Shown here piece after piece: positions 21,808 to 35,909 of a DNA stretch of 64,000 nt (the stretch's first letter is position 1; the number at the start of each line of letters is the position of its first letter). The translations under genes were made by a program, and so were the position numbers. Origin of the DNA: an uncultured Planctomycetota bacterium (GTDB lineage Bacteria > Planctomycetota > PLA2 > JAEUHO01). Location: contig CAVVXN010000002.1 of NCBI GenBank assembly GCA_963752285.1, positions 192,001-256,000 on the forward strand. Direction: 5' to 3'. The notes under the pieces were generated by a model. That model did not search any database. It was not told the DNA's origin and saw only the letters and a list, made by a program, of their open reading frames with translations.

Positions 21808-22758
21808 TCACCGCGCGCGGACGAGCTCCCACTCGTCGATGCCCTCGGCGGCGAGGAGCGGGCGCACGTCGTCCAGGAAGCGCCCGCCGTCGCCGCGATA
21901 GCCCGCGGTCGGCGCGAGGTCCGGGAGCCGCTCCGAGAACCACGCGTTCAGCCGGTCCATGTAGAGCTCCCGCACGAGCTTCGCGGCCATCGAGGCCCAG
22001 CCGACGAGCAGGGCGCGGGCGTCGCCCGAGGTCAGGACGCGCACGTCGAACCTCCGCCCCGGGAGGACGAGGACGTACCGCGCGTCGCCCTTTGGCGCGG
22101 GTCGCGGGTCCACGGACGCGAACGGGAAGAGGCCCGAGAGCCACTCCGCGTAGTCGAGCCGCCCGCCCTGACGGTCGAGGACGATCTCGGCCTCGGCGTC
22201 GTCGGTCGTGTCGAGGAGGCGGAGCAGCACCTCGCCCGTCGCGAGCGCGAGCGCGCGAGCCTTGTTGCCGAGCCGGTCGATCGTCCGGTTGAGCTCGCCG
22301 GCGCCCATGGGGCGAAGCGCGAGCCCCGCAGCCGAGACTCCGTGCTTCGAGACGTGCTGCCGGAGACGCGCCGGCGGCGCCTCGGGGAACGGGACGCCCT
22401 CCAGGCCCGCCGCCCAACGCGGCGGTGCGAGGTCGGACGCGCCGAAGACGCCGTAGCATGCCAGCGCGTCGGCGAGGGACCGCGGCGGCGCGTGCCCGAG
22501 CGCCTCGACGAGCGCGTGCACGCCGCGGACGAGCCCGGCGCGTCCCAACCGGCCGTGTACGACCTTCGAGTCGTCCACCACCACGGGGCGCCCCGCGTCG
22601 AGAGCGCCGGCCACCCGGCGGGGGCGCCGGATGACCCGTCGTGCGAGCGCCCGCGCGAGGTCCCCGGCGCCGTTCGGCGTCCGCCAGGACACGCCGGCGA
22701 CGACGAGCGGACCGAGCAGCGGGCCGTAGCCCGCTTCGTCGATGCCGATGTGGAGCAC
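21808..22758 (-). CDS. Divergent ribonuclease HII-family protein
   Basis: GIDEAGYGPLLGPLVV, DDSK, LDRQGGR, SGD...ASMAAKLVRE, AGY. Confidence 0.85.
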   Translation of the reverse strand: MLHIGIDEAGYGPLLGPLVVAGVSWRTPNGAGDLARALARRVIRRPRRVAGALDAGRPVVVDDSKVVHGRLGRAGLVRGVHALVEALGHAPPRSLADALACYGVFGASDLAPPRWAAGLEGVPFPEAPPARLRQHVSKHGVSAAGLALRPMGAGELNRTIDRLGNKARALALATGEVLLRLLDTTDDAEAEIVLDRQGGRLDYAEWLSGLFPFASVDPRPAPKGDARYVLVLPGRRFDVRVLTSGDARALLVGWASMAAKLVRELYMDRLNAWFSERLPDLAPTAGYRGDGGRFLDDVRPLLAAEGIDEWELVRAR

Positions 22759-26424: not shown

Positions 26425-26748
26425 CTACCCGGCCCGGGCCGGGCGGTGGGGACAGGCGCACGGCGTGTGGTCGCAGCGGGGGCACCCGTCCCGATAGCGG
26501 GCGGCGGCGCCCGCGAGGTCCACGCCGGCGAGCGAGGCGAGCGTCGCGAGCCACGCGAGGACGTCGGAGACCTCTTCCTCGAGGTTCGCCCGCTCGCCGC
26601 GCTTGAGCGCGCGAGCGAGCTCGCCGACCTCTTCGACGAACCACACGAACGTCGCGTCCGCGCCGCGCGCGCGGTCGCGCGGTCCGTAGAGGCGCTCGAT
26701 CGCGGCCTGGAAGGCCGCGATCGTGAGCGGCGTGTCGTTCGCCGCCAT
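26425..26748 (-). CDS. MazG-like nucleotide pyrophosphohydrolase
   Basis: WFVEEVGELA...EEEVSDVLAWL; C-terminal CPRC...PCAC; start overlaps the upstream stop. Confidence 0.9.
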   Translation of the reverse strand: MAANDTPLTIAAFQAAIERLYGPRDRARGADATFVWFVEEVGELARALKRGERANLEEEVSDVLAWLATLASLAGVDLAGAAARYRDGCPRCDHTPCACPHRPARAG

Positions 26749-28880
26749 CAGCGGAGACGCTTCACCGTCGAGATCGTGATGTCGTCGTTCTGTGGCGCGT
26801 CGAGGTGGAACTGGTCGATCGCGCTGCCGACGAAGTTCACGAAGGCCTGCGAGTTCTTGGGCGCCTCGCGGGCCACCGCCTGATAGAAGCGCGGCTCGCC
26901 GAACTCCTGGCCGTCGCTGCTCTGCACCTTGAGCGCGCCGTCCGTGTAGAGCACGATCCGGTCGCCCACGTTCACGGGCAGGTCGCCCTCCTCCAGGGCG
27001 CGGTCGAACACGGGACCCACGTCGAGCCCGAGGGCGATGCCCTCGGGGTTCACCTTCGCGACCTTCCCGCTCGCGTGGCGGTAGACGAGCAGCGGGAGGT
27101 GGCCCGCGCTCGCGATGGTCGCCTTGCCCGCGTTCGTGTCGATCACGACGTAGACCGCCGTGACGTGGCGGCCGGGCGGCAGCTCGCCCGCCAGGTTCTT
27201 GTTGACCTGACGGAGCACCTCGGCCGGGGAGGCGACCCCGGGGGCCGCGGCCCGCACGTACGACCGCGCGCTCGCCATCACGAGCGCCGCGGTCAGGCCC
27301 CGCACGTTCGTGTCGAGGAGGATCACGCCGACGTGGTGGTCGTCGATGCGGAAGTACTCGAAGTGGTCCCCACCGATCTCGAAGCCGGGCTTGAAGAGCG
27401 TCTCGACCTCGTAGTCGGAGAGCCGCGGCGGGTTCTTGCTCATCAGCGCGCCGTGGATCTCTTCCGCGACCTTCTGTTCGCGGTCCACGATCTCCGGCAG
27501 GTCCTGGTCGCCGTGCTGACTGCGGAACTCGAGGTTCGAGACCATTCGCTCGACCGCGCGGGCCACCGCGCCCGCCTCCGCGCCGCGCGCGCGGAGCGTC
27601 CGCGACGGGTCGCCGCGCGTGCCCAGGCGGTCGACCTCGCGCGCCAGCTCGCGCACGCTCGCCGTGTGCGCGTTCGCGACGGCGAACGCGAGGCCGCCTA
27701 CGAAGAGCGGGCCGATGAGCAGCATCGCGAGCCCGATCCCGTTTCCGGCGTCGTCCCCGCCGGAGCCGGCCCACAGGGCGACGTACGCGCGCATGGGGTG
27801 GTCGCGGGGCGCGCCGCGGACGTCGGCGCCGTAGATCTCGGCGTCCCACATCCGCATGTCCGAACCCCGGACCTTCCCGGTCGTGTGCGTCTGTGTCGCG
27901 GCCAGGCTGTGGTCGTACCGGAGCCCGTCCCCCGACGGGAACGAGGCGATCTCCTGCGCGTCCGCGCCCTGGCCCTCCGTGATCCACGCGCCGAGCACCC
28001 GCACGTCGCCGTCGAGCGCGGCCGCGAGCGAACGGAGGGCGGCGATGCGCTGGTTCGCGTCCGCCCGCGACGTGCCCGTGCCCGACGACACGGCCTTCTT
28101 CCACTTCTCGACCGCCTGGTTCCAGCGCGCCTTCGCCTCCTTGAGCTCCCGCCGCTCCTCCTCGTCCATGCCGGCGGGGAAGTCCTGCTTCACCGCGTCG
28201 GCGTGGCGATTCCAGAAGGTCTTGCCGGCGTCGCCGAAGAGATCCTCGACGATCTTCTGGGTCTGCTCGACGGGGTCCTCTCCCTTCGCGGCGGTCTCTC
28301 CCGTCCAGAACGACGCGGGCACGAGCCCGAGGCTCTGCGCGGCGCTCGCGCCCGCGCGGTCGATGTCCACGGAGCCGGCCTTCTTGCCCGTCAGGAGCAC
28401 GGCGGCCGCGACCACGGCGAACGTCAGTACGGCGGAGACGAGCCCGACCTTGAGGGCGATCGTCATCCCGCCCCCCGAGGCGGCGCGCGTCGAACGCCCG
28501 GTCGCGCGTCCGCTCCGGCCGGTGCGTCCGACCTCGACCTCGGCCATGTCGTCGCCGCGGCGGGCGCCCCGTCCGGCGCCGCCGCGGGGCGCGGCGGGCG
28601 GGACGGGCGCACGCGCCGGCGACGCCACGACCGGCGCGACCGGGGGCGTGACCGGCGCCACGGCGGGCACGACCGGAGGCGGCATGGCGGGCCTGACCGG
28701 CGTCGCCGCCGGGGGCACGACGGGCGGACGCACGGGCGGACGCAGGGGTGCCTTCGCCGGCGGGACCACGGGCGGCACGACCGGGCGCACCGGCGCGGGC
28801 TCCTCGCCTCGTCCGCGCCCGGCTCCCTCCCGCCGTCGCTCGGGACCGCGTTCGCGGCGCGGCCGTCTCTGATCCGCCAT
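26748..28880 (-). CDS. Membrane-bound SpoIIE/RsbU-type PP2C phosphatase with HAMP-like linker
   Basis: Pro/Val-rich N-terminus, two TMs, GGDHFEY, LLDTNVRG, SAGHLP, YTDG, DDIT. Confidence 0.88.
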   Translation of the reverse strand: MADQRRPRRERGPERRREGAGRGRGEEPAPVRPVVPPVVPPAKAPLRPPVRPPVVPPAATPVRPAMPPPVVPAVAPVTPPVAPVVASPARAPVPPAAPRGGAGRGARRGDDMAEVEVGRTGRSGRATGRSTRAASGGGMTIALKVGLVSAVLTFAVVAAAVLLTGKKAGSVDIDRAGASAAQSLGLVPASFWTGETAAKGEDPVEQTQKIVEDLFGDAGKTFWNRHADAVKQDFPAGMDEEERRELKEAKARWNQAVEKWKKAVSSGTGTSRADANQRIAALRSLAAALDGDVRVLGAWITEGQGADAQEIASFPSGDGLRYDHSLAATQTHTTGKVRGSDMRMWDAEIYGADVRGAPRDHPMRAYVALWAGSGGDDAGNGIGLAMLLIGPLFVGGLAFAVANAHTASVRELAREVDRLGTRGDPSRTLRARGAEAGAVARAVERMVSNLEFRSQHGDQDLPEIVDREQKVAEEIHGALMSKNPPRLSDYEVETLFKPGFEIGGDHFEYFRIDDHHVGVILLDTNVRGLTAALVMASARSYVRAAAPGVASPAEVLRQVNKNLAGELPPGRHVTAVYVVIDTNAGKATIASAGHLPLLVYRHASGKVAKVNPEGIALGLDVGPVFDRALEEGDLPVNVGDRIVLYTDGALKVQSSDGQEFGEPRFYQAVAREAPKNSQAFVNFVGSAIDQFHLDAPQNDDITISTVKRLR

Positions 28881-28961: not shown

Positions 28962-29453
28962 TCAGCGGGCGAAGAGGCCGGCCCACGAGAGACCGAGGAC
29001 CACCGCGCCCGCGACGCACCCCGCGGCGAGGTCGTCGGCGAGCACGCCGACGCCGCCGGGGAGCCGTTCGAGCCGGGCGATGGGCCCGGGCTTCATGATG
29101 TCGAGGACGCGGAAGAGAACGAGGGCCGCGGCGGCCGCGACGAGGCCGCCGTGCACGGCCACCGCGACGCCCGACGCGATCGCCTGCCCCGCGACCTCGT
29201 CGGAAACGACCCACCCCGGGTCGCCGCGGCCGTCGGGCCGCAGCGCGCGCCCGCCCCAGACGAGCGTCACGGCGGAGCCGAGGACGACCAGCGCGATCGC
29301 GCCCGGGAGGCCGAGGCCCGCGCGGTCCAGGAGGACCACGGCCGCCGCGGTCACGATCGAGCCCGCCGTGCCGGGCATCCCCGGCGCATAGCCCGCGCCG
29401 AGCGCGGCGAGGAGGAGACGCGCGGTTGCCGAGAGCGGGCGCGCCTCAGGCAT
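28962..29453 (-). CDS. pgpA: Phosphatidylglycerophosphatase A
   Basis: PGTAGS, DPGWVVSDEVAGQ, LFRVLDIMKPGPI, GGVGVLADDLAAG. Confidence 0.93.
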   Translation of the reverse strand: MPEARPLSATARLLLAALGAGYAPGMPGTAGSIVTAAAVVLLDRAGLGLPGAIALVVLGSAVTLVWGGRALRPDGRGDPGWVVSDEVAGQAIASGVAVAVHGGLVAAAAALVLFRVLDIMKPGPIARLERLPGGVGVLADDLAAGCVAGAVVLGLSWAGLFAR

Positions 29454-30054
29454 CGGCGAGGAGCCGCGCGGCCCGGAACGCGTAGTCGACGCCGGAGACC
29501 ACGGTCAGGATCGTCGCCCCCCACACGAGCGCGTGCGCGAGGCTCCACGTCGTGGGTCCGCCGGGCAGTCGATCGAGCACGGGCACGGCCCATCGTGCGA
29601 GCGAGAAGCCGGCCTCGTACAGCAGCACGCCGCCGACCGCGAACACCTGGAGGAGCATCTTGGCCTTGCCGAGGGGCAGGGCCTGGAACGAGGTGCCGAG
29701 GCCCTCGACCGCGCCTCGGAGCGCGGTCACGAGCAGCTCGCGCGCGAGGATCAGCGCGACCGCCCACGCCGGCAAGACCGCCGGAACCCCGTCCACGCCC
29801 AGGAGCACGATCATCGTCCCGAGCACGAGCAGCTTGTCCACGAGCGGGTCGGCGATCCGCCCGAACACGCTCACCTCGCCGAAGTGGCGGGCGACGATCC
29901 CGTCTACCGCGTCCGTCGCGGCGGTCAGGGCGAAGAGGCCGAAGGCCCAGTACCACGTGGCGCGTGTCGGGTCCGGCGCGGCGAGGGCCAGGATCGTCCA
30001 CAGCGCGAAGGTCAGCACCGCCCGGAGCAGGGTGATCCGGTTCGCCCAGCCCAT
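29446..30054 (-). CDS. pgsA: CDP-diacylglycerol--glycerol-3-phosphate 3-phosphatidyltransferase
   Basis: NRITLLR, TDAVDGIVAR...FGRIADPLVDK, ARELLVTALR, GKAKM. Confidence 0.93.
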   Translation of the reverse strand: MGWANRITLLRAVLTFALWTILALAAPDPTRATWYWAFGLFALTAATDAVDGIVARHFGEVSVFGRIADPLVDKLLVLGTMIVLLGVDGVPAVLPAWAVALILARELLVTALRGAVEGLGTSFQALPLGKAKMLLQVFAVGGVLLYEAGFSLARWAVPVLDRLPGGPTTWSLAHALVWGATILTVVSGVDYAFRAARLLADA

Positions 30055-30064
30055 GGCGCCGATG

Positions 30065-31444
30065 CTACCGCGCGAGCCCCGCCACGGGGCCACCCGTCGC
30101 GAGCGTCCCCACCAGGTCGTACCCCGCGCTCTTCGTCACCCGCACCGGCAGGATCTCGCCGACGCGCCGCGCCCCCCCGTCCGCGATCTCGACCGTGCCG
30201 TCCACGTCGGGCGCGTCCCAGCGGCTCCGCCCGATCGCGACCCCGCGGACTGGATCGACCTCCTCGACCAGGACCTCGATCGTCCGTCCGACCCGGCTGG
30301 CGTTCGAGGCGAAGTGCACGGCCTGCTGCGCCTCCATCAGCTCCGCGCGGCGTGCCTCGGCCACGGCCTCGGGCACGGGGTCGTCCATCGTGAAGGAGGG
30401 CGTCCCCCGCTCGCGGCTGAAGCAGAACACCCCGAGGCGGTCGAAGAGGCCCTCGGACACGGCGCGGAGGTTCTCGTCGTGGTCGGCGTCGGTCTCGCCG
30501 GGGAAGCCGGTGATCAGGGTCGTCCGGACCGCCACGTCCGGCACGCGGTCGCGGATTCGCTCGAGGAGCGCCCGTTGGCGCTCGGCGGTGATGCCGCGGC
30601 GCATGCGCCTCAGCACCGGCGTGCTCATGTGCTGCAGGGGCAGGTCCACGTACTCGACGACGCGCTCGTTCGAGGCGATCTCGTCGATCACGTCGTCGCG
30701 GAGGATCGACGGGTAGAGGTAGAGGAGCCGCCACCACCTCGGCCCGTCGATCTTCGTGAGGGCCCGCACGAGATCGACGAGGCGCGGACGGCCGTAGCGG
30801 TCGCGGCCGTACGCCGTCGTGTCTTGGGAAACGACGCAGACCTCCGAGACGCCGAGCTCGGCGAGGCGCGTGGCGTCCTCGACGTTCTCCTCGATCGTCC
30901 GGCTCGCGAGTCGCCCGCGGAACGAGGGGATCGCGCAGAATGCGCATCGTTGGTCGCATCCCTCGCTGATCTTCAGGTACGCGTACGCGGTGGACGGCGT
31001 CAGCAACACGCGCCGCGGCGGCGCGAGCGCGATCGGCTCGAGGCCCATCAGCGAGGTCGCCGCGTCCACGATCTCGGGGTAGTCGCGGAAGGGGAGCCAG
31101 CGATCGACCTCGGGCAGGCTCTTCTCGAGCGCCGCGCCGTCGCGCTGGACGAGGCACCCCGACACGATGAGCCCGCGGAGGCGACCGTACTCCTTGTGCC
31201 GCGCGACCCGAGCGATCGTCTCGACGCTCTCGCGCCGCGCGGGGTCGATGAAGCCGCACGTGTTCACGAGCGCGAGGTCGGCCTCGTCCATCGTCTCGGC
31301 GAGCGCGAACCCCGCCGACTCGAGGCGCGAGACGAGCCCCTCGCTGTCCGCGAGGTTTTTCGCGCAGCCGAGCGATATCAACGCGACGCGCCCGCGCGGG
31401 GGCGCGGAGCGGGCGGGGGGGGCGGGGCCGTCCGGGGTGTTCAT
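30065..31444 (-). CDS. rimO: Ribosomal protein S12 methylthiotransferase
   Basis: SLGCAKNLADSE, NTCGFI, KISEGCDQRCAFCAIP, GFPGET, TRAM domain with DAPDVDG. Confidence 0.95.
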   Translation of the reverse strand: MNTPDGPAPPARSAPPRGRVALISLGCAKNLADSEGLVSRLESAGFALAETMDEADLALVNTCGFIDPARRESVETIARVARHKEYGRLRGLIVSGCLVQRDGAALEKSLPEVDRWLPFRDYPEIVDAATSLMGLEPIALAPPRRVLLTPSTAYAYLKISEGCDQRCAFCAIPSFRGRLASRTIEENVEDATRLAELGVSEVCVVSQDTTAYGRDRYGRPRLVDLVRALTKIDGPRWWRLLYLYPSILRDDVIDEIASNERVVEYVDLPLQHMSTPVLRRMRRGITAERQRALLERIRDRVPDVAVRTTLITGFPGETDADHDENLRAVSEGLFDRLGVFCFSRERGTPSFTMDDPVPEAVAEARRAELMEAQQAVHFASNASRVGRTIEVLVEEVDPVRGVAIGRSRWDAPDVDGTVEIADGGARRVGEILPVRVTKSAGYDLVGTLATGGPVAGLAR

Positions 31445-31478: not shown

Positions 31479-33416
31479 TCAACCGCGCGCGTCCCACTCC
31501 TCGCGCGAAACGAGGAGCGGACGGGCGCCGCTGGGGGTCATCTCGCCGAGGACCCCAGCCTTCACGAGGCTCTCCATCAGGGCCCTCGCGCGCGCGTACC
31601 CGATGCCGAGCTTCCGGGAGAGGAGCACCGAGGAGGCGGCGCCCCGCTCGAACGCCACCTCCACCGCCTTCGCCGACAGGTCGTCCTGCGGGAGGGCCGC
31701 GCCCTTCCGGCGGGGCGCGGCGTCGTGCTCGCGCCCCGCGTCGTCCCGACCCGGGGACCTCGGCGGCGCGTGCCGCTTCGCCGGGGCCTGGGCCGGGGCC
31801 TTCGCCTCGGGGCGCGCGGGGGCGTCCGCGTCCGCGCCGGCCGTTCGCCGCGACTTCTTCGCCTTCGCGGGACGGGCCTTCCCGTCGGTGGCCGCCGCGC
31901 GGGTCCCGCCGCGGGCCTTCGCGCCCGCCTTCGTCGGGGCCGTCTCCGCGGGGGCGGCCCGGGCGGTACGCCGCGTCTTCTTGGCCTTCCCGCCCGGGCC
32001 GGACCGCTTCGTGTCGCCGGAGGCCGGCGCGGCCTCGGCGGGCCTCGTCTTCCGTCGCTTTCCCTTCCGGGCGGGTCTCGCCTCCTTCCCCAGCGGGGGC
32101 GCGACGGCGTCGGGCGCCACCGGGACCGAGGCCGCCGGCTCGTCGAAGAAGCCGGAGCCTTCGAGCTTCTGGCGGTAGAGCGCCATCGACTCCTCGTCCG
32201 AGATCGCGGCGGTCTCGAACGGCGCGGTCTCCTCGAGGAGCGCGAGCGCTTCGGCGTCGGCCTCGGCGAGCGCGCGCGCCTCGTCGTCCTCCTCGGGCTC
32301 CGCGTCGGCGGGGAGCGCGTCGGCGAGCGCCACGAGCGCGGCCTCGGGGTCCACGGGGTCCCCGGGGGGCGCCGGACCCTTAGGCGCGGACGGGGCCTCG
32401 GAAGGCGCGGGCCCGGGCGGCCCGGGCTCCGTGGCGGTCGCTCGGGCGTCCTCCTCCGGGTCCTCGATCGCGTCCTCGTCGCGATAGCGAACGCCTGCGG
32501 GAAGCGGCATCTCCGGGCGGCCGCGCGACGCCGGTTCGTCCGATTCGGCCTCGGCGGGGGGCGGCGGCTCGTCCGCGTACCGCACGCCCGGGCGAAGACG
32601 TTGCGGGCGCGCAGGCGCCGCGGGCGACGGCTCGGCCGGCGGCCCGTCCTCGGCCGGGGGCTCCTCGCCCTCCTCCGGCTCGGCGAATCGGACCCCGGGA
32701 TGGAGCTCGCTCGCCGGGGGGACCGGGGTGGGCTCGGGCGGCGGCGGCTCCGCGACGCCGACGGGCGCGTCGCTCTCGCGATACCGGATCGGACCGACGT
32801 CGCGCCCCTCGATCTCCATCGGGAGCTCGTTCCCGGCCTCGTCGTAGCGGCGGACGGGGTAGAGCGGCTTCGGACCGCGGGAGCGCGTGCCGTCGAAGAG
32901 TCCCGGCGGGGGCTCGAGGCGCAGGACCGACCCGGACTCGGTGGGCGGCCGCGCGGCGGGGATCCGGGAGAAGAACGGCGCGATCGCGAGCATGCCGGCC
33001 GCCGCTGCCATGGCGAGGAGCAGCAGCGCGGCGAGCACGCTCCCGAGCGTCTGGAGGAGCTCGGCGAGACGCGCGCCCCAGAGTCCGCCCACCGTGGCCC
33101 CGCCGACCAGGGCGAGGAGACCCGCCGTCGCGACGCCGAGCACGACGCAGAAGACGAGGCGGACGCCGATCCCCCCGGGTCCCGAGAGCCCGAACGGGTC
33201 ACGCCCCCAGTACCCGAGGAGCAGCCAGCCGAAGAGCACGAGGAGCACGAGCACCCCGCCCCAGCCGAGCAGGGTGCCCGGCGCCTCGAGGAGGCCGAGC
33301 GTCCCGAGGTGCGGGCGGTCGAACCCCCGGATCCCGAGCGCGATCTGCAGGCCGAGGAGGACCACCAGCAACGCGGGGACCAGGAGCGCGGTCCAGCGGC
33401 GCGGGGTCAGGGACAT
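31479..33416 (-). CDS. Membrane protein with disordered linker and C-terminal FtsK-gamma domain, no motor domain
   Basis: Four hydrophobic N-terminal segments; Pro/Glu-rich then Lys/Arg/Ala-rich linker; DDLSAKAV...ASSVLLSRKLGIGYARARALMESLVKAGVLG...RPLLV; alternative GTG start at 33467. Confidence 0.85.
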   Translation of the reverse strand: MSLTPRRWTALLVPALLVVLLGLQIALGIRGFDRPHLGTLGLLEAPGTLLGWGGVLVLLVLFGWLLLGYWGRDPFGLSGPGGIGVRLVFCVVLGVATAGLLALVGGATVGGLWGARLAELLQTLGSVLAALLLLAMAAAAGMLAIAPFFSRIPAARPPTESGSVLRLEPPPGLFDGTRSRGPKPLYPVRRYDEAGNELPMEIEGRDVGPIRYRESDAPVGVAEPPPPEPTPVPPASELHPGVRFAEPEEGEEPPAEDGPPAEPSPAAPARPQRLRPGVRYADEPPPPAEAESDEPASRGRPEMPLPAGVRYRDEDAIEDPEEDARATATEPGPPGPAPSEAPSAPKGPAPPGDPVDPEAALVALADALPADAEPEEDDEARALAEADAEALALLEETAPFETAAISDEESMALYRQKLEGSGFFDEPAASVPVAPDAVAPPLGKEARPARKGKRRKTRPAEAAPASGDTKRSGPGGKAKKTRRTARAAPAETAPTKAGAKARGGTRAAATDGKARPAKAKKSRRTAGADADAPARPEAKAPAQAPAKRHAPPRSPGRDDAGREHDAAPRRKGAALPQDDLSAKAVEVAFERGAASSVLLSRKLGIGYARARALMESLVKAGVLGEMTPSGARPLLVSREEWDARG

Positions 33417-33575
33417 CGGCGGGGATCCTACAACGAGCGTCCCAGGTTCGGGCGGAGCGGTGTCCACGACGTCACCTCCCGGCGCGCGGCCCGCGCGCGG
33501 TCCCCCGGGGCGCCGAGGGGGCCGTTTTGGGCTCGGGGCGACGAGGTCCGCGGCCGCGAAGCGCCCGGCGCGGCC

Positions 33576-35909
33576 TCACTCCCACGACTCGTCCACCACC
33601 TCGACGTCCTCGCCCTCGCCGAACGTGTGCGAGGGGCGCGGCCCCTCGCCGCGCTCGGCGGCGCGCTGTGCCTCCCAGGCGTCGAGCTCGACGAGCACCT
33701 CGCGCGCCTTGCTGCCCACGTGCGGGCCCACCACGCCGCGGTCGCACATCATGTCGATCAGGCGGGACGCGCGCGTGTAGCCGATGCCCATGCGCCGCTG
33801 GAGCATGCTCGCGCTGCCGAGCCGCGTGGACAGGACCGCGCGCACGGCGTCGTCGTAGAGGTCGTCCTCCTCGAGCGGGTCGCCGAGGCCCTCGCGCTTG
33901 GCCTGGAGGAGGTCCTGGTACTCGGGCGGCGGGACGTGCTCCTTCAGCCAGTCCACGACGTGCCGGACCTCCGCGTCCGTGACGAGCGTTCCCTGGGCGC
34001 GGCGGAGGTGCAGGCTCCGCGGGTGCATGAAGAGCATGTCGCCCATGCCGAGGAGCTTGTCCGCGCCGTTCGCGTCGAGGATCACGCGGCTGTCGATCTT
34101 GCTCGAGACGCAGAACGCGATGCGCGTGGGCATGTTGGCCTTGATGAGGCCCGTGATGACGTTCGTCGAGGGGCGTTGCGTGGCGAGGATGATGTGGATC
34201 CCGACGGCGCGGCTCTTCTGCGCGAGCCGCGTGATGGCGAGCTCCACGTCCTTGCCGCTCGTCATCATCAGATCGGCGAGCTCGTCCACGACGATCACCA
34301 CCTGCGCGAGCTGTTCCGGCGCCTCCTCCTCGGACAGTCCCGCGCGTTCGCGGGCCTGCGCGATCTTCTCGGCGGGCAGGGCGTTGTAGCCGGCGATGTT
34401 GCGCACGCCGGCGGCGAGGAGCAGGCCGTAGCGCTCCTCCATGCGGTCCACCGCCCACTCGAGGATCTTCGCCGCGCGCTTCATGTCGGTCACGACGGGC
34501 GTGATGAGGTGGGGGATGCCCTCGAAGAACGAGAGCTCGACCTGCTTCGGGTCGATCAGGATCAGGCTCAGCTCGTCGGGCGTCCGCGTGTACAGGAACG
34601 AGAGCAGGATCGAGTTGATGCAGACGCTCTTGCCCGACCCGGTCGCTCCCGCGATCAGGATGTGGGGCATCGTCGAGAGGTCCTCGACCAGGGGTCGGCC
34701 CGCGGTGTCGCGACCGAGGAAGATCGGGAGCGACCGGCGCTCCGCCAGCGGGGCGGCCTCCTCGACGAGGTCGCGGAAGCACACGGTCTCGCGCGTGAGG
34801 TTCGGAACCTCCACGCCGACCGTGTTGCGGCCGGGGATCGGCGCGACGATGCGCACGCTCGGCGCCTTCAACGCGATCGCGAGGTCGTCGGCGAGCGCCG
34901 TCACGCGATTCAGGCGCACGCCCGAGCCGATCGCGAGCTCGTAGAAGGTGATCACCGGCCCGCGCTGGCTCGAGACGACGCGGGCCTCGACGCCGAACGA
35001 GGCGAGGGCCTGGCCGAGGACCTTGCCGTTGACCTCGACCTCCTCCTTCACCTGCTCCGCGTCGTGGACCTCGCCCACGTCGAGGAGGTTCGTGGGGGGG
35101 AACTCGTACTCGCCCGAGGTGCGGCGGGGCGAGGCCTTCGACCGGCGCGGCCGCGCGCGGGGCGCCGGCGCGCGCGGGACCGCGGGGCGCGCCGGGGTCG
35201 CGGCGTCGGCCGGCTCGGCCGTCGGGAGGGGGGCGACCGGCGCCGGGGCGGCCGCAGCGGGCTCGTCCTCGCCCTTTGCCTGCGCCACCTCGTCCTCCGC
35301 CTCCGCAAGCGCGGTCGCGCGCTCCTCGCGGGCCAGGGCCGCCGACTCGAGGAGCGCGCGGACCCGTCCGTACGTGCGCCCCACCGAGACGTCGGAGACG
35401 AGACGGAGCGTGCCGAGCGCGGCGACGAGCGCGACGAGACCCGCGGCGTGCCCGAGCGACCGGTAGAGGGCCGAGGCGAGGGCCACGCCGACGTAGCCCG
35501 CCGGGCCCGAGCGCGCGAGGCCGGGGAACGAGGCGTGCACCAGGAGGAGTCCGGCGGCGCCGCCGACGAGGGCCGCCAGGGGGAGGGTCAGGGCGAGGCG
35601 GAGTCCGAAGCGACGGGGCCGCCGGCCCCGGACGAGCGGCACCCCGAAGCCGAGGGCCGACAGCGGGAAGACCCACGCCCCGATCCCGACCGCGCGCGCG
35701 AGCGCGGACGCGACCCCGTGGCCGAGGGTCCCGGCCAGGTTCCCCACTCCGCCCTCGGAGGGGAGGGGACCCAGGCTCGCGAGGGCCGCGGAGAGGACCA
35801 CGCCGAGGAGCGCGAGGGCCACCCCGAGGACCTCGAGCCCGACGGGCTCGTCTGCCACGGCCTCCGCCGGGACGGTCCGGGAGCGGGAGGCAGCGGACGA
35901 GCGGCCCAT
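33576..35909 (-). CDS. ftsK: DNA translocase FtsK
   Basis: N-terminal TMs, PHILIAGATGSGKS, IDPKQVEL, VDELADLMM, LATQRP, LLGMGDML, gamma SMLQRRMGIGYTRASR. Confidence 0.97.
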   Translation of the reverse strand: MGRSSAASRSRTVPAEAVADEPVGLEVLGVALALLGVVLSAALASLGPLPSEGGVGNLAGTLGHGVASALARAVGIGAWVFPLSALGFGVPLVRGRRPRRFGLRLALTLPLAALVGGAAGLLLVHASFPGLARSGPAGYVGVALASALYRSLGHAAGLVALVAALGTLRLVSDVSVGRTYGRVRALLESAALAREERATALAEAEDEVAQAKGEDEPAAAAPAPVAPLPTAEPADAATPARPAVPRAPAPRARPRRSKASPRRTSGEYEFPPTNLLDVGEVHDAEQVKEEVEVNGKVLGQALASFGVEARVVSSQRGPVITFYELAIGSGVRLNRVTALADDLAIALKAPSVRIVAPIPGRNTVGVEVPNLTRETVCFRDLVEEAAPLAERRSLPIFLGRDTAGRPLVEDLSTMPHILIAGATGSGKSVCINSILLSFLYTRTPDELSLILIDPKQVELSFFEGIPHLITPVVTDMKRAAKILEWAVDRMEERYGLLLAAGVRNIAGYNALPAEKIAQARERAGLSEEEAPEQLAQVVIVVDELADLMMTSGKDVELAITRLAQKSRAVGIHIILATQRPSTNVITGLIKANMPTRIAFCVSSKIDSRVILDANGADKLLGMGDMLFMHPRSLHLRRAQGTLVTDAEVRHVVDWLKEHVPPPEYQDLLQAKREGLGDPLEEDDLYDDAVRAVLSTRLGSASMLQRRMGIGYTRASRLIDMMCDRGVVGPHVGSKAREVLVELDAWEAQRAAERGEGPRPSHTFGEGEDVEVVDESWE

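Follow-up and report, generated by a model that had tools for sequence, protein, structure and literature searches.

What is a gene that lies directly behind ftsK, and that carries the DNA-binding gamma domain of FtsK on a membrane protein, if the protein has no motor with which to pump DNA? The question is raised by a stretch of 64,000 nucleotides from the genome of an uncultured Planctomycetota bacterium (assembly GCA_963752285.1, contig CAVVXN010000002.1, positions 192,001 to 256,000), here called the window, in which a gene at 31479-33416 on the minus strand encodes a protein of 645 residues, the target of this analysis. The best answer is that the target is a conserved, expressed-looking ftsK paralogue; most likely a tandem copy of ftsK, made within the Planctomycetota, went on to lose its alpha/beta motor. 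The protein is no translocase. It is an undescribed variant of the FtsK family, widespread in Planctomycetota and equipped, in the family of genomes to which the window belongs, with a basic tract and motifs of its own; how it would act can be proposed from these features. No description of a motor-less FtsK paralogue that joins the four-helix membrane domain to gamma was found in a literature search, bioRxiv supplements being outside its reach, and the database names of the target and its relatives are 'hypothetical protein' only.

Architecture of the target

The original prediction, made from the nucleotide sequence, described four hydrophobic segments, a long low-complexity linker and an FtsK gamma winged helix, with no Walker A or B motif and no alpha/beta motor, and this architecture was borne out. 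The parts of the protein and the neighbouring FtsK are as follows, with amino acids (aa) of the target counted from the ATG at 33416.

33576..35909, minus strand: ftsK, intact, 777 aa, with 4TM, alpha, SpoIIIE motor and gamma domains (Pfam; Walker A at aa 421, VIVVDE at aa 538)
31479..33416, minus strand: motor-less FtsK paralogue, 645 aa (open reading frame, Pfam, start-site and orthologue alignment)
32952..33416, minus strand: N-terminal four-helix membrane domain, FtsK_4TM-like, aa 1-155 (hydropathy, hhalign, Atlas, model confidence)
32772..32870, minus strand: family-specific conserved motif, aa 183-215 (invariant columns, substitution ratios, model confidence)
32142..32771, minus strand: acidic proline-rich disordered linker, aa 216-425 (charge, alignments, model confidence)
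31692..32141, minus strand: basic Lys/Arg/Ala-rich tract, aa 426-575 (charge)
31509..31688, minus strand: FtsK gamma winged helix, aa 577-636 (Pfam, Protein Data Bank sequence matches, Foldseek, model confidence)

The open reading frame (ORF) can also be read from an alternative GTG at 33467 (31479..33467, minus strand), which would lengthen the protein by 17 aa to 662 aa. A GGAGG lies 7 nt 5' of this GTG and an AGGA about 11 nt 5' of the ATG; the target is numbered from the ATG because orthologue alignments start near it, and the 17 extra residues are not conserved among orthologues. An identical protein of 645 aa is present in a public collection (P0004).

In Pfam the sole match of the target was FtsK_gamma (PF09397; 46.8 bits, cut-off 30.6), with no match to FtsK_alpha (PF17854) or FtsK_SpoIIIE (PF01580) at E<=1, in agreement with the predicted presence of gamma and absence of the motor; a scan against NCBIfam returned no family. 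The adjacent FtsK matched FtsK_4TM (28.5 bits), FtsK_alpha (104.5), FtsK_SpoIIIE (209.6) and FtsK_gamma (84.7). Walker A and hhhhDE patterns, both present in FtsK, were absent from the target and from all 26 family representatives examined. The gamma of the target is 37% identical to that of the neighbouring FtsK, and the two differing recognition helices that had been quoted in the prediction are both present in the translations. Within the whole genome of the organism (4.64 Mb in 5 contigs, 89% complete) there are exactly two gamma domains, that of FtsK and that of the target, the latter scoring 51.8 bits in the genome-wide scan.

Structure prediction agrees with this layout. An AlphaFold2 model built on a 26-sequence alignment was used, a model of gamma alone from a single sequence having been poor (predicted local distance difference test, pLDDT, 64.8). 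The N-terminal domain is helical, with block means over 10 residues of pLDDT 70-97 (aa 11-150), gamma reaches 93-96 (aa 581-640), and the region between them is disordered, with 270 of the 645 residues in the model below 50. A Foldseek search against the Protein Data Bank (PDB) returned FtsK gamma structures for all of its top ten matches, with template-modelling scores normalised to the target structure of 0.73-0.84 and root-mean-square deviations of 1.4-2.3 A; the E-values were only about 0.007-0.02 because the query was the entire 645-aa model. Sequence matches of the gamma in the PDB were 2j5o, 2ve8 and 2j5p.

The N-terminal domain has hydrophobic stretches at aa 7-33, 42-72, 75-113 and 117-152 (Kyte-Doolittle windows). 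Compared by hhalign with three true FtsK N-termini it gave 91.8% (E 7e-7, 91 columns), and with the N-terminal domains of paralogues from other planctomycete families 96.8% (E 3e-10, 136 columns), reversed-sequence controls giving 0.3% and 0.8%, with the reservation that composition may inflate the scores when profiles of membrane helices are compared. In Pfam, FtsK_4TM is matched above its cut-off by the related paralogues L033 (48.9 bits), L035 (32.4), L041 (32.7), P0111 (35.5) and P0039 (27.2). As a lead, the ten top named clusters found for aa 1-160 in a language-model Atlas were all FtsK_4TM (score 0.88-0.89). Together these comparisons point to a four-helix membrane domain of the FtsK type, with its N- and C-termini predicted to be cytoplasmic. 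Its most conserved motif, RGFxxP...PGxLLGWGG, covers the loop between the first two transmembrane helices (TM1 and TM2) and the start of TM2, and since the Arg-rich N-terminus should lie inside (positive-inside rule), the loop would face the periplasm.

In its long variable linker, C-terminal gamma of the same fold, operon-like gene run and probable FtsK-type four-helix N-terminal domain, the target resembles the FtsK translocases of E. coli, P. aeruginosa and its own neighbour. It differs from them in lacking the RecA-type alpha/beta motor with its Walker motifs, in changes at the gamma positions equivalent to R1300, E1306 and N1296, and in evolving far faster.

Conservation and selection

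Two ways in which such a gene could be spurious, as an assembly artefact or as a decayed copy of ftsK, had been named at the outset. The former, like chance, was ruled out by orthologues from independent assemblies. The latter is contradicted by orthologues in the same gene order and by a gamma under tighter constraint than the linkers. A search with the target recovered, in 22 of 24 further genomes of its family, the N-terminal part and/or a gamma that outscored the one in FtsK; the two genomes that gave nothing are fragmented (82% and 88% complete), and as a first pass was stricter the counts are a floor. A scan of species-representative genomes found nine loci, all in metagenome-assembled genomes titled Planctomycetota, Planctomycetia or Planctomycetales. 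A word-based homologue search was swamped by low complexity and gave six proteins; it was replaced by a profile of 11 members, which retrieved 50 clusters at E<1e-30 from 1.84 billion representatives. Among 24 of the best family profile matches, Pfam found gamma in 20 (E<=0.001), the motor in none and FtsK_4TM, weak or at cut-off level, in two. In six or seven loci of the window's family the rimO and pgsA genes that follow were confirmed with Pfam.

Over 26 full-length representatives 21 columns are invariant, and these fall in the membrane domain, the motifs and gamma. Ratios of nonsynonymous to synonymous substitution (dN/dS, Nei-Gojobori) could be computed for five usable distant pairs, at most 55% identical. 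They were 0.37-0.46 for gamma, 0.25-0.45 for the motif at aa 183-215, 0.29-0.77 for the membrane domain and 0.54-1.47 for the two linkers; as dS was near saturation the absolute values are rough, and it is the contrast between regions that is used. The G+C content at third codon positions (GC3) is 0.93, like that of the adjacent genes, in a window of 74% G+C where a GC3 above 0.9 distinguishes real genes.

That the target is a decaying ftsK duplicate or an artefact with no function is accordingly exceedingly improbable. Fast evolution, frame shifts in two relatives and the loss of gamma in one lineage could be cited for it. Set against these are the recurrence in the same-family genomes just described, the open frames of 465-935 aa in other families described below, invariant residues in three separate modules, gamma and motif ratios below those of the linkers, and a GC3 like that of the neighbours.

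Distribution in the phylum and origin

The wider distribution was surveyed with the gamma model in 121 Planctomycetota genomes, at least 85% complete, from about 70 families. At least one gamma match was present in 116 of them and at least two in 32. In 21 of the 121, belonging to 12 families including the window's, a second gamma follows that of FtsK at a distance of 1.4-3.0 kb downstream, on the same strand and contig; the rest of the 32 multi-gamma genomes are two doubtful cases and nine whose second match is on a separate contig. Fifteen loci of other families were fetched, together with that of G039. In 13 of the 15, and in G039, there is an ORF of 465-935 aa, and all 14 of these have gamma and no motor; FtsK_4TM is above cut-off in three and weak in three more. 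At L046 the called ORF is without a match and gamma lies in another frame, and L047 has no clear ORF. Many of the other-family loci continue with a rimO-sized ORF, pgsA, pgpA and a HAMP-PP2C phosphatase, and in eight (L034, L036, L040, L041, L042, L043, L044 and L046) a HAMP and/or SpoIIE-type PP2C phosphatase ends the gene run.

The target shares with these motor-less paralogues (P0156, P0111, P0109, L033-L045) the place directly behind ftsK, usually before rimO-pgsA-pgpA, the 4TM-like domain, the disordered linker and a gamma as the only other domain; the N-terminal domains are homologous and the gammas cluster. It differs in the linker, which in the other families is purely, often extremely acidic and in the window's family is acidic and then basic, with the family's own motifs.

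The paralogue is not universal. In one complete genome of 4.0 Mb, from another family (G065:C1:3843328-3844891, L050), 77 nt separate the end of the FtsK gamma from the rimO match, and no paralogue lies between the two genes. In the sister families f2, f3 and f5 the queries used found no paralogue, either behind ftsK or ahead of rimO, and other genes lie behind ftsK. No FtsK_gamma match was found in G043 and G104, single contigs of 9.3-9.5 Mb from one genus of family f10, whose FtsK may lack a recognisable gamma.

A recent duplication within this genome was considered and rejected, as the two gammas are only 37% identical and that of the paralogue falls among paralogues from other genomes. In a tree of 43 gammas, which resolves poorly, a single clade of paralogue gammas was not rejected (approximately unbiased test, p-AU 0.51), and the gamma of the window grouped with those of other-family paralogues (support 98/84 and 91/92) instead of joining its own FtsK; branches are long among the paralogues and short among the FtsK gammas. 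The simplest account of these sequences would be that ftsK was duplicated in tandem once, long ago, and that the copy shed its motor, with later losses or divergence beyond detection.

The weaker profile matches also held other gamma proteins, some without a motor (an Mrr_cat nuclease with two gammas, DUF4062 with two gammas, and small proteins of two or three gammas) and some with one (Mrr_cat, a short FtsK motor and two gammas). These proteins (P0087, P0105, P0083, P0060, P0073, P0090, P0091 and P0097) are probably parts of defence systems or mobile elements with no bearing on the present finding.

A gamma domain released from FtsK

In FtsK, gamma reads the FtsK-orienting polar sequences (KOPS) and activates the recombinase XerD, and the target gamma aligns without gaps to those of E. 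coli and P. aeruginosa. The E. coli numbering was anchored by the peptide 1289-1297 (PMC5052618) and by the KOPS-blind triple change R1300A/E1303A/E1306A (PMC2680272). According to these sources, changes at R1300, E1303 and E1306 make E. coli FtsK KOPS-blind (PMC2680272), and the XerD contacts of gamma are Q1288, R1289, R1292, I1293, G1294 and N1296 (PMC5052618, Table 1), with R1289 also contacting DNA in FtsK and the gamma-XerD interface varying between species (PMC5052618). The target has the following residues at these positions.

Q1288, XerD contact: Ser
R1289, XerD contact: Arg
R1292, XerD contact: Gly
I1293 and G1294, XerD contacts: both kept
N1296, XerD contact: Ala
R1297, recognition helix: Arg
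R1300, KOPS reading: Ala
E1303, KOPS reading: Glu
E1306, KOPS reading: Val

Across the phylum, R1289 is present in 20 of 21 planctomycete FtsK gammas and is Arg or Lys in 21 of 22 paralogue gammas. Three further residues, each found in 21 of 21 FtsK gammas, are kept by fewer paralogues: Y1295 in 10 of 22, R1297 in 10 of 22 and R1300 in 6 of 22. Within the window's family the R1289 position is Arg in 43 of 43 aligned gamma sequences and the R1300 position in none of six aligned gammas, and the stretch from H2 to H3 carries a net charge of +2 to +3, as in FtsK. With the fold and R1289 kept, and R1300, R1297 and Y1295 loosened, the recognition helix has therefore been freed from the constraint under which it stands in FtsK. 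The role in reading KOPS that had been suggested for the target is not supported, given the Ala and Val that replace R1300 and E1306 and the lack of Arg at R1300 in its family, and the target is, from these residues, probably not a KOPS reader.

The linker

The disordered region of about 420 residues is of low complexity, and it contains conserved islands. A mixed segment (aa 156-215) holds the motif YPxRRxDxxGNELPM...DVGxIRYR-D/E at aa 183-215, in which Y186, P187, G195, E197, D206, G208 and R211 are invariant or nearly so and the pLDDT is 63-81; this motif was not seen in paralogues of other families. The acidic proline-rich part (aa 216-425, net charge -37, pLDDT mostly below 50) bears three further G-V-R-[YF]-x-[DE] motifs, at aa 241, 277 and 308, and ends in a conserved RYxxKLExSGxFD (aa 414-425). 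GNELPM, the four G-[VI]-R-[YF]-x-[DE] motifs and KLExSGxFD are restricted to the window's family. The Lys/Arg/Ala tract that follows (aa 426-575, net +24) directly precedes gamma. It is of the low-complexity type that binds DNA with no sequence preference in histone H1-like proteins such as chlamydial Hc2 (Pfam HC2); the likeness is compositional only, and the tract is, unlike Hc2, one segment of a membrane protein. Weak HC2 matches, far below cut-off, occur in 3 of 26 representatives and not in the target.

In one lineage of the window's family (the G002 type) the orthologue lacks gamma and finishes in a Lys-rich tail. In this lineage (L010:1336-3138 (+), L017:5878-7641 (+) and P0023) the gene lies about 9 kb from ftsK and still stands ahead of rimO-pgsA-pgpA. 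Among other families, the 819-aa paralogue of G121 (L041:4116-6575 (-)) has a linker of about 330 residues of nearly pure Glu/Asp-Leu/Pro repeats, followed by a short Lys-rich stretch and gamma.

The gene run

The target belongs to a run of minus-strand genes consisting of yicC, gmk, a flavoprotein gene, ftsK, the target, a rimO-like gene, pgsA, pgpA and a SpoIIE/PP2C phosphatase gene. It sits 108-159 nt behind ftsK, depending on the start codon, and 34 nt ahead of the rimO-like gene.

30065..31444, minus strand: rimO-like gene, with UPF0004, Radical_SAM and TRAM_2 domains (Pfam), 34 nt downstream of the target
29446..30093, minus strand: pgsA-like gene, CDP-alcohol phosphatidyltransferase (domain match)
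28962..29453, minus strand: pgpA, phosphatidylglycerophosphatase A (domain match)
26748..28880, minus strand: SpoIIE/PP2C-type phosphatase gene, the recurrent final gene of the run (Pfam sees only the SpoIIE domain)

Neither a promoter-like site nor a terminator-like site on the gene strand was seen between ftsK and rimO, in a scan that is weak and uses a sigma-70 consensus that may not apply to this host. Because the gaps are short and no terminator-like site is present on the gene strand, co-transcription of the target with its neighbours is plausible. Among sequencing runs, four DNA runs carry only 6-10% of the sequence words and no RNA run was listed; their contigs are short pieces that mainly cover ftsK and rimO, and the target is spanned by none.

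Elsewhere in the window, a 316-aa ORF at 21808-22758 on the minus strand matches RNase HII at residues 4-24 only (36 bits), with no match for the remainder; it may reflect a frame problem or an unusual fusion.

What the protein may do

The explanation to which we would give an even chance is that the target, an old tandem duplicate of ftsK that has lost its motor, now serves as a membrane-anchored, DNA-binding adaptor beside FtsK. The membrane domain would place it in the membrane assembly of FtsK, perhaps by co-oligomerising with the 4TM domain of FtsK. In the window's family the basic tract and gamma would then hold DNA with no reading of sequence, so that the protein might tether chromosomal DNA, or hand it over, to the site of FtsK during FtsZ-independent division, and the family-specific linker motifs would be docking sites for partners. 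Non-specific holding is favoured because the family has the basic tract and because one of its lineages kept a Lys-rich tail after losing gamma. The membrane-to-chromosome tether put forward in the original prediction thus appears plausible for the window's family, owing to its basic tract.

Several observations weigh against this reading, in addition to the near-saturation of dS and the composition effects mentioned above. FtsK_4TM has no direct Pfam match in the target and is matched in only 2 of 26 family representatives. The protein evolves fast, being 35-49% identical among genomes in which the compared parts of FtsK keep 52-83%. In the two closest relatives on long contigs, G009 (L016:6585-8745) and G001 (L018:6251-8177), the N-terminal part and gamma lie in different frames, and in G001 the N-terminal frame continues into rimO; the break may reflect true decay or an erroneous indel within a GC-rich repeat. 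A 100-aa window with a net charge of at least +14 occurs in 14 of 27 family representatives (+23 in the protein of the window), so that 13 are without a strongly basic window, and it occurs in none of 16 paralogues from other families, whose linkers are all acidic (net -11 to -207). With about half of the family and the other families lacking the basic window, a DNA tether based on this tract cannot be the shared ancestral function.

In the closest alternative the protein has no role at DNA and would partner or regulate FtsK in the membrane: the four helices would join the FtsK assembly, the largely acidic linker would serve as a spacer, as a mimic of DNA or as a platform for docking, and the degenerate gamma would be a protein-protein module. 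The uniformly acidic linkers of the 16 other-family paralogues, the loss from most paralogues of the recognition-helix arginines (R1297 kept in 10 of 22, R1300 in 6 of 22) and the conserved position beside ftsK all speak for it; for the window's family it has to contend with a tract of +24 directly before gamma, with the lineage that keeps only the basic tract and with an H2-H3 stretch as positively charged as that of FtsK. On balance we consider it somewhat unlikely. A stand-alone activator of XerD is a good deal less likely still. Here a membrane-tethered gamma would turn on XerCD-dif recombination at the division site with no translocation, by analogy with isolated or fused gamma in E. coli. 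The genome encodes an XerC-like and an XerD-like recombinase (the latter with 302 bits on the XerD model and 288 on that of XerC, the other protein the reverse), Arg is retained at R1289 throughout the aligned family gammas (Arg or Lys in nearly all paralogues), and the I-G-Y of the minimal XerD-activating peptide, as given in PMC5052618, is kept. Activators other than FtsK exist, and the XerD activation factor XafT of the TLC-phi phage, as reported in PMC9226527, would be a precedent for activation by a small non-motor protein; XafT is, however, soluble and phage-borne and shares no Pfam family with the target, for which activation is hypothetical. Moreover, Q1288, R1292 and N1296 are replaced, the retained R1289 is also a DNA contact in FtsK (PMC5052618), and a second activator seems redundant next to an FtsK with a well-conserved gamma of its own (84.7 bits). 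On the side of the recombinase, the XerD-like protein (L025:1468-2367 (+)) keeps none of the five aligned partner residues E119, Q123, I127, E184 and Y187, and the positions of E. coli XerD E183, E184 and Y187 are substituted both in it and in the XerC-like protein (L024:1477-2409 (-), read by eye). Because the XerD-like protein keeps none of these residues, the E. coli interface is not transferable either way; if FtsK activates Xer in this genome, a different interface is needed.

The original prediction, which gave the order ftsK-rodZ-rimO-pgsA for Actinobacteria and some Firmicutes, had proposed that the target has taken over the RodZ position. The proposal was not supported, for in the related complete genome that has no paralogue ftsK abuts rimO directly; the gene therefore seems to have been added by a tandem duplication and not to have replaced RodZ. 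That the target stands in functionally for RodZ, as a membrane protein whose helix-turn-helix binds MreB, is very improbable. In its favour are the presence of MreB (484 bits), the lack of a RodZ_C (PF13464) match in the 89%-complete genome, the statement in PMC5147048 that RodZ was not found in Planctomycetes, the place before rimO-pgsA and a general likeness, as both are membrane proteins with a cytoplasmic helix-turn-helix. But the target has no RodZ domain in Pfam and no homology to RodZ, the gamma fold differs from the XRE-type helix-turn-helix of RodZ, and the topology is reversed: RodZ has an N-terminal helix-turn-helix, one membrane helix and a periplasmic RodZ_C, and the target has four helices first and the winged helix last.

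Implications for planctomycete division

The absence of FtsZ, on which the original prediction had built, agrees with the lack of any FtsZ match in the 89%-complete genome. In Planctopirus limnophila, ftsK is reported to be the sole member of the classical division set that is essential, and a single FtsK homologue is stated for this species, according to PMC6952346 and PMC12283558; the essential-gene supplement gives insertion indices around ftsK (Plim_2061-2065) with no annotation, so that a paralogue is not recognisable there.

For the division of Planctomycetota without FtsZ, a second FtsK-derived membrane protein, conserved directly behind ftsK in at least 12 families and annotated only as a hypothetical protein, is a concrete and testable candidate partner. 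It is also a natural experiment in which the membrane and gamma functions of FtsK are separated from DNA pumping, and in which gamma is seen evolving freely once released from the motor. A bolder view, unlikely as a whole in our judgement, is that the protein might be a core, lineage-specific part of FtsZ-independent division and segregation: its FtsK-like membrane domain would co-assemble with the essential FtsK at the division or bud-neck site, its conserved periplasmic loop and its linker motifs would bring in envelope partners from neighbouring genes (those for phospholipid synthesis and PP2C signalling), and its charged linker and degenerate gamma would hold the chromosome. If this were true, FtsK alone would not be the whole machine.

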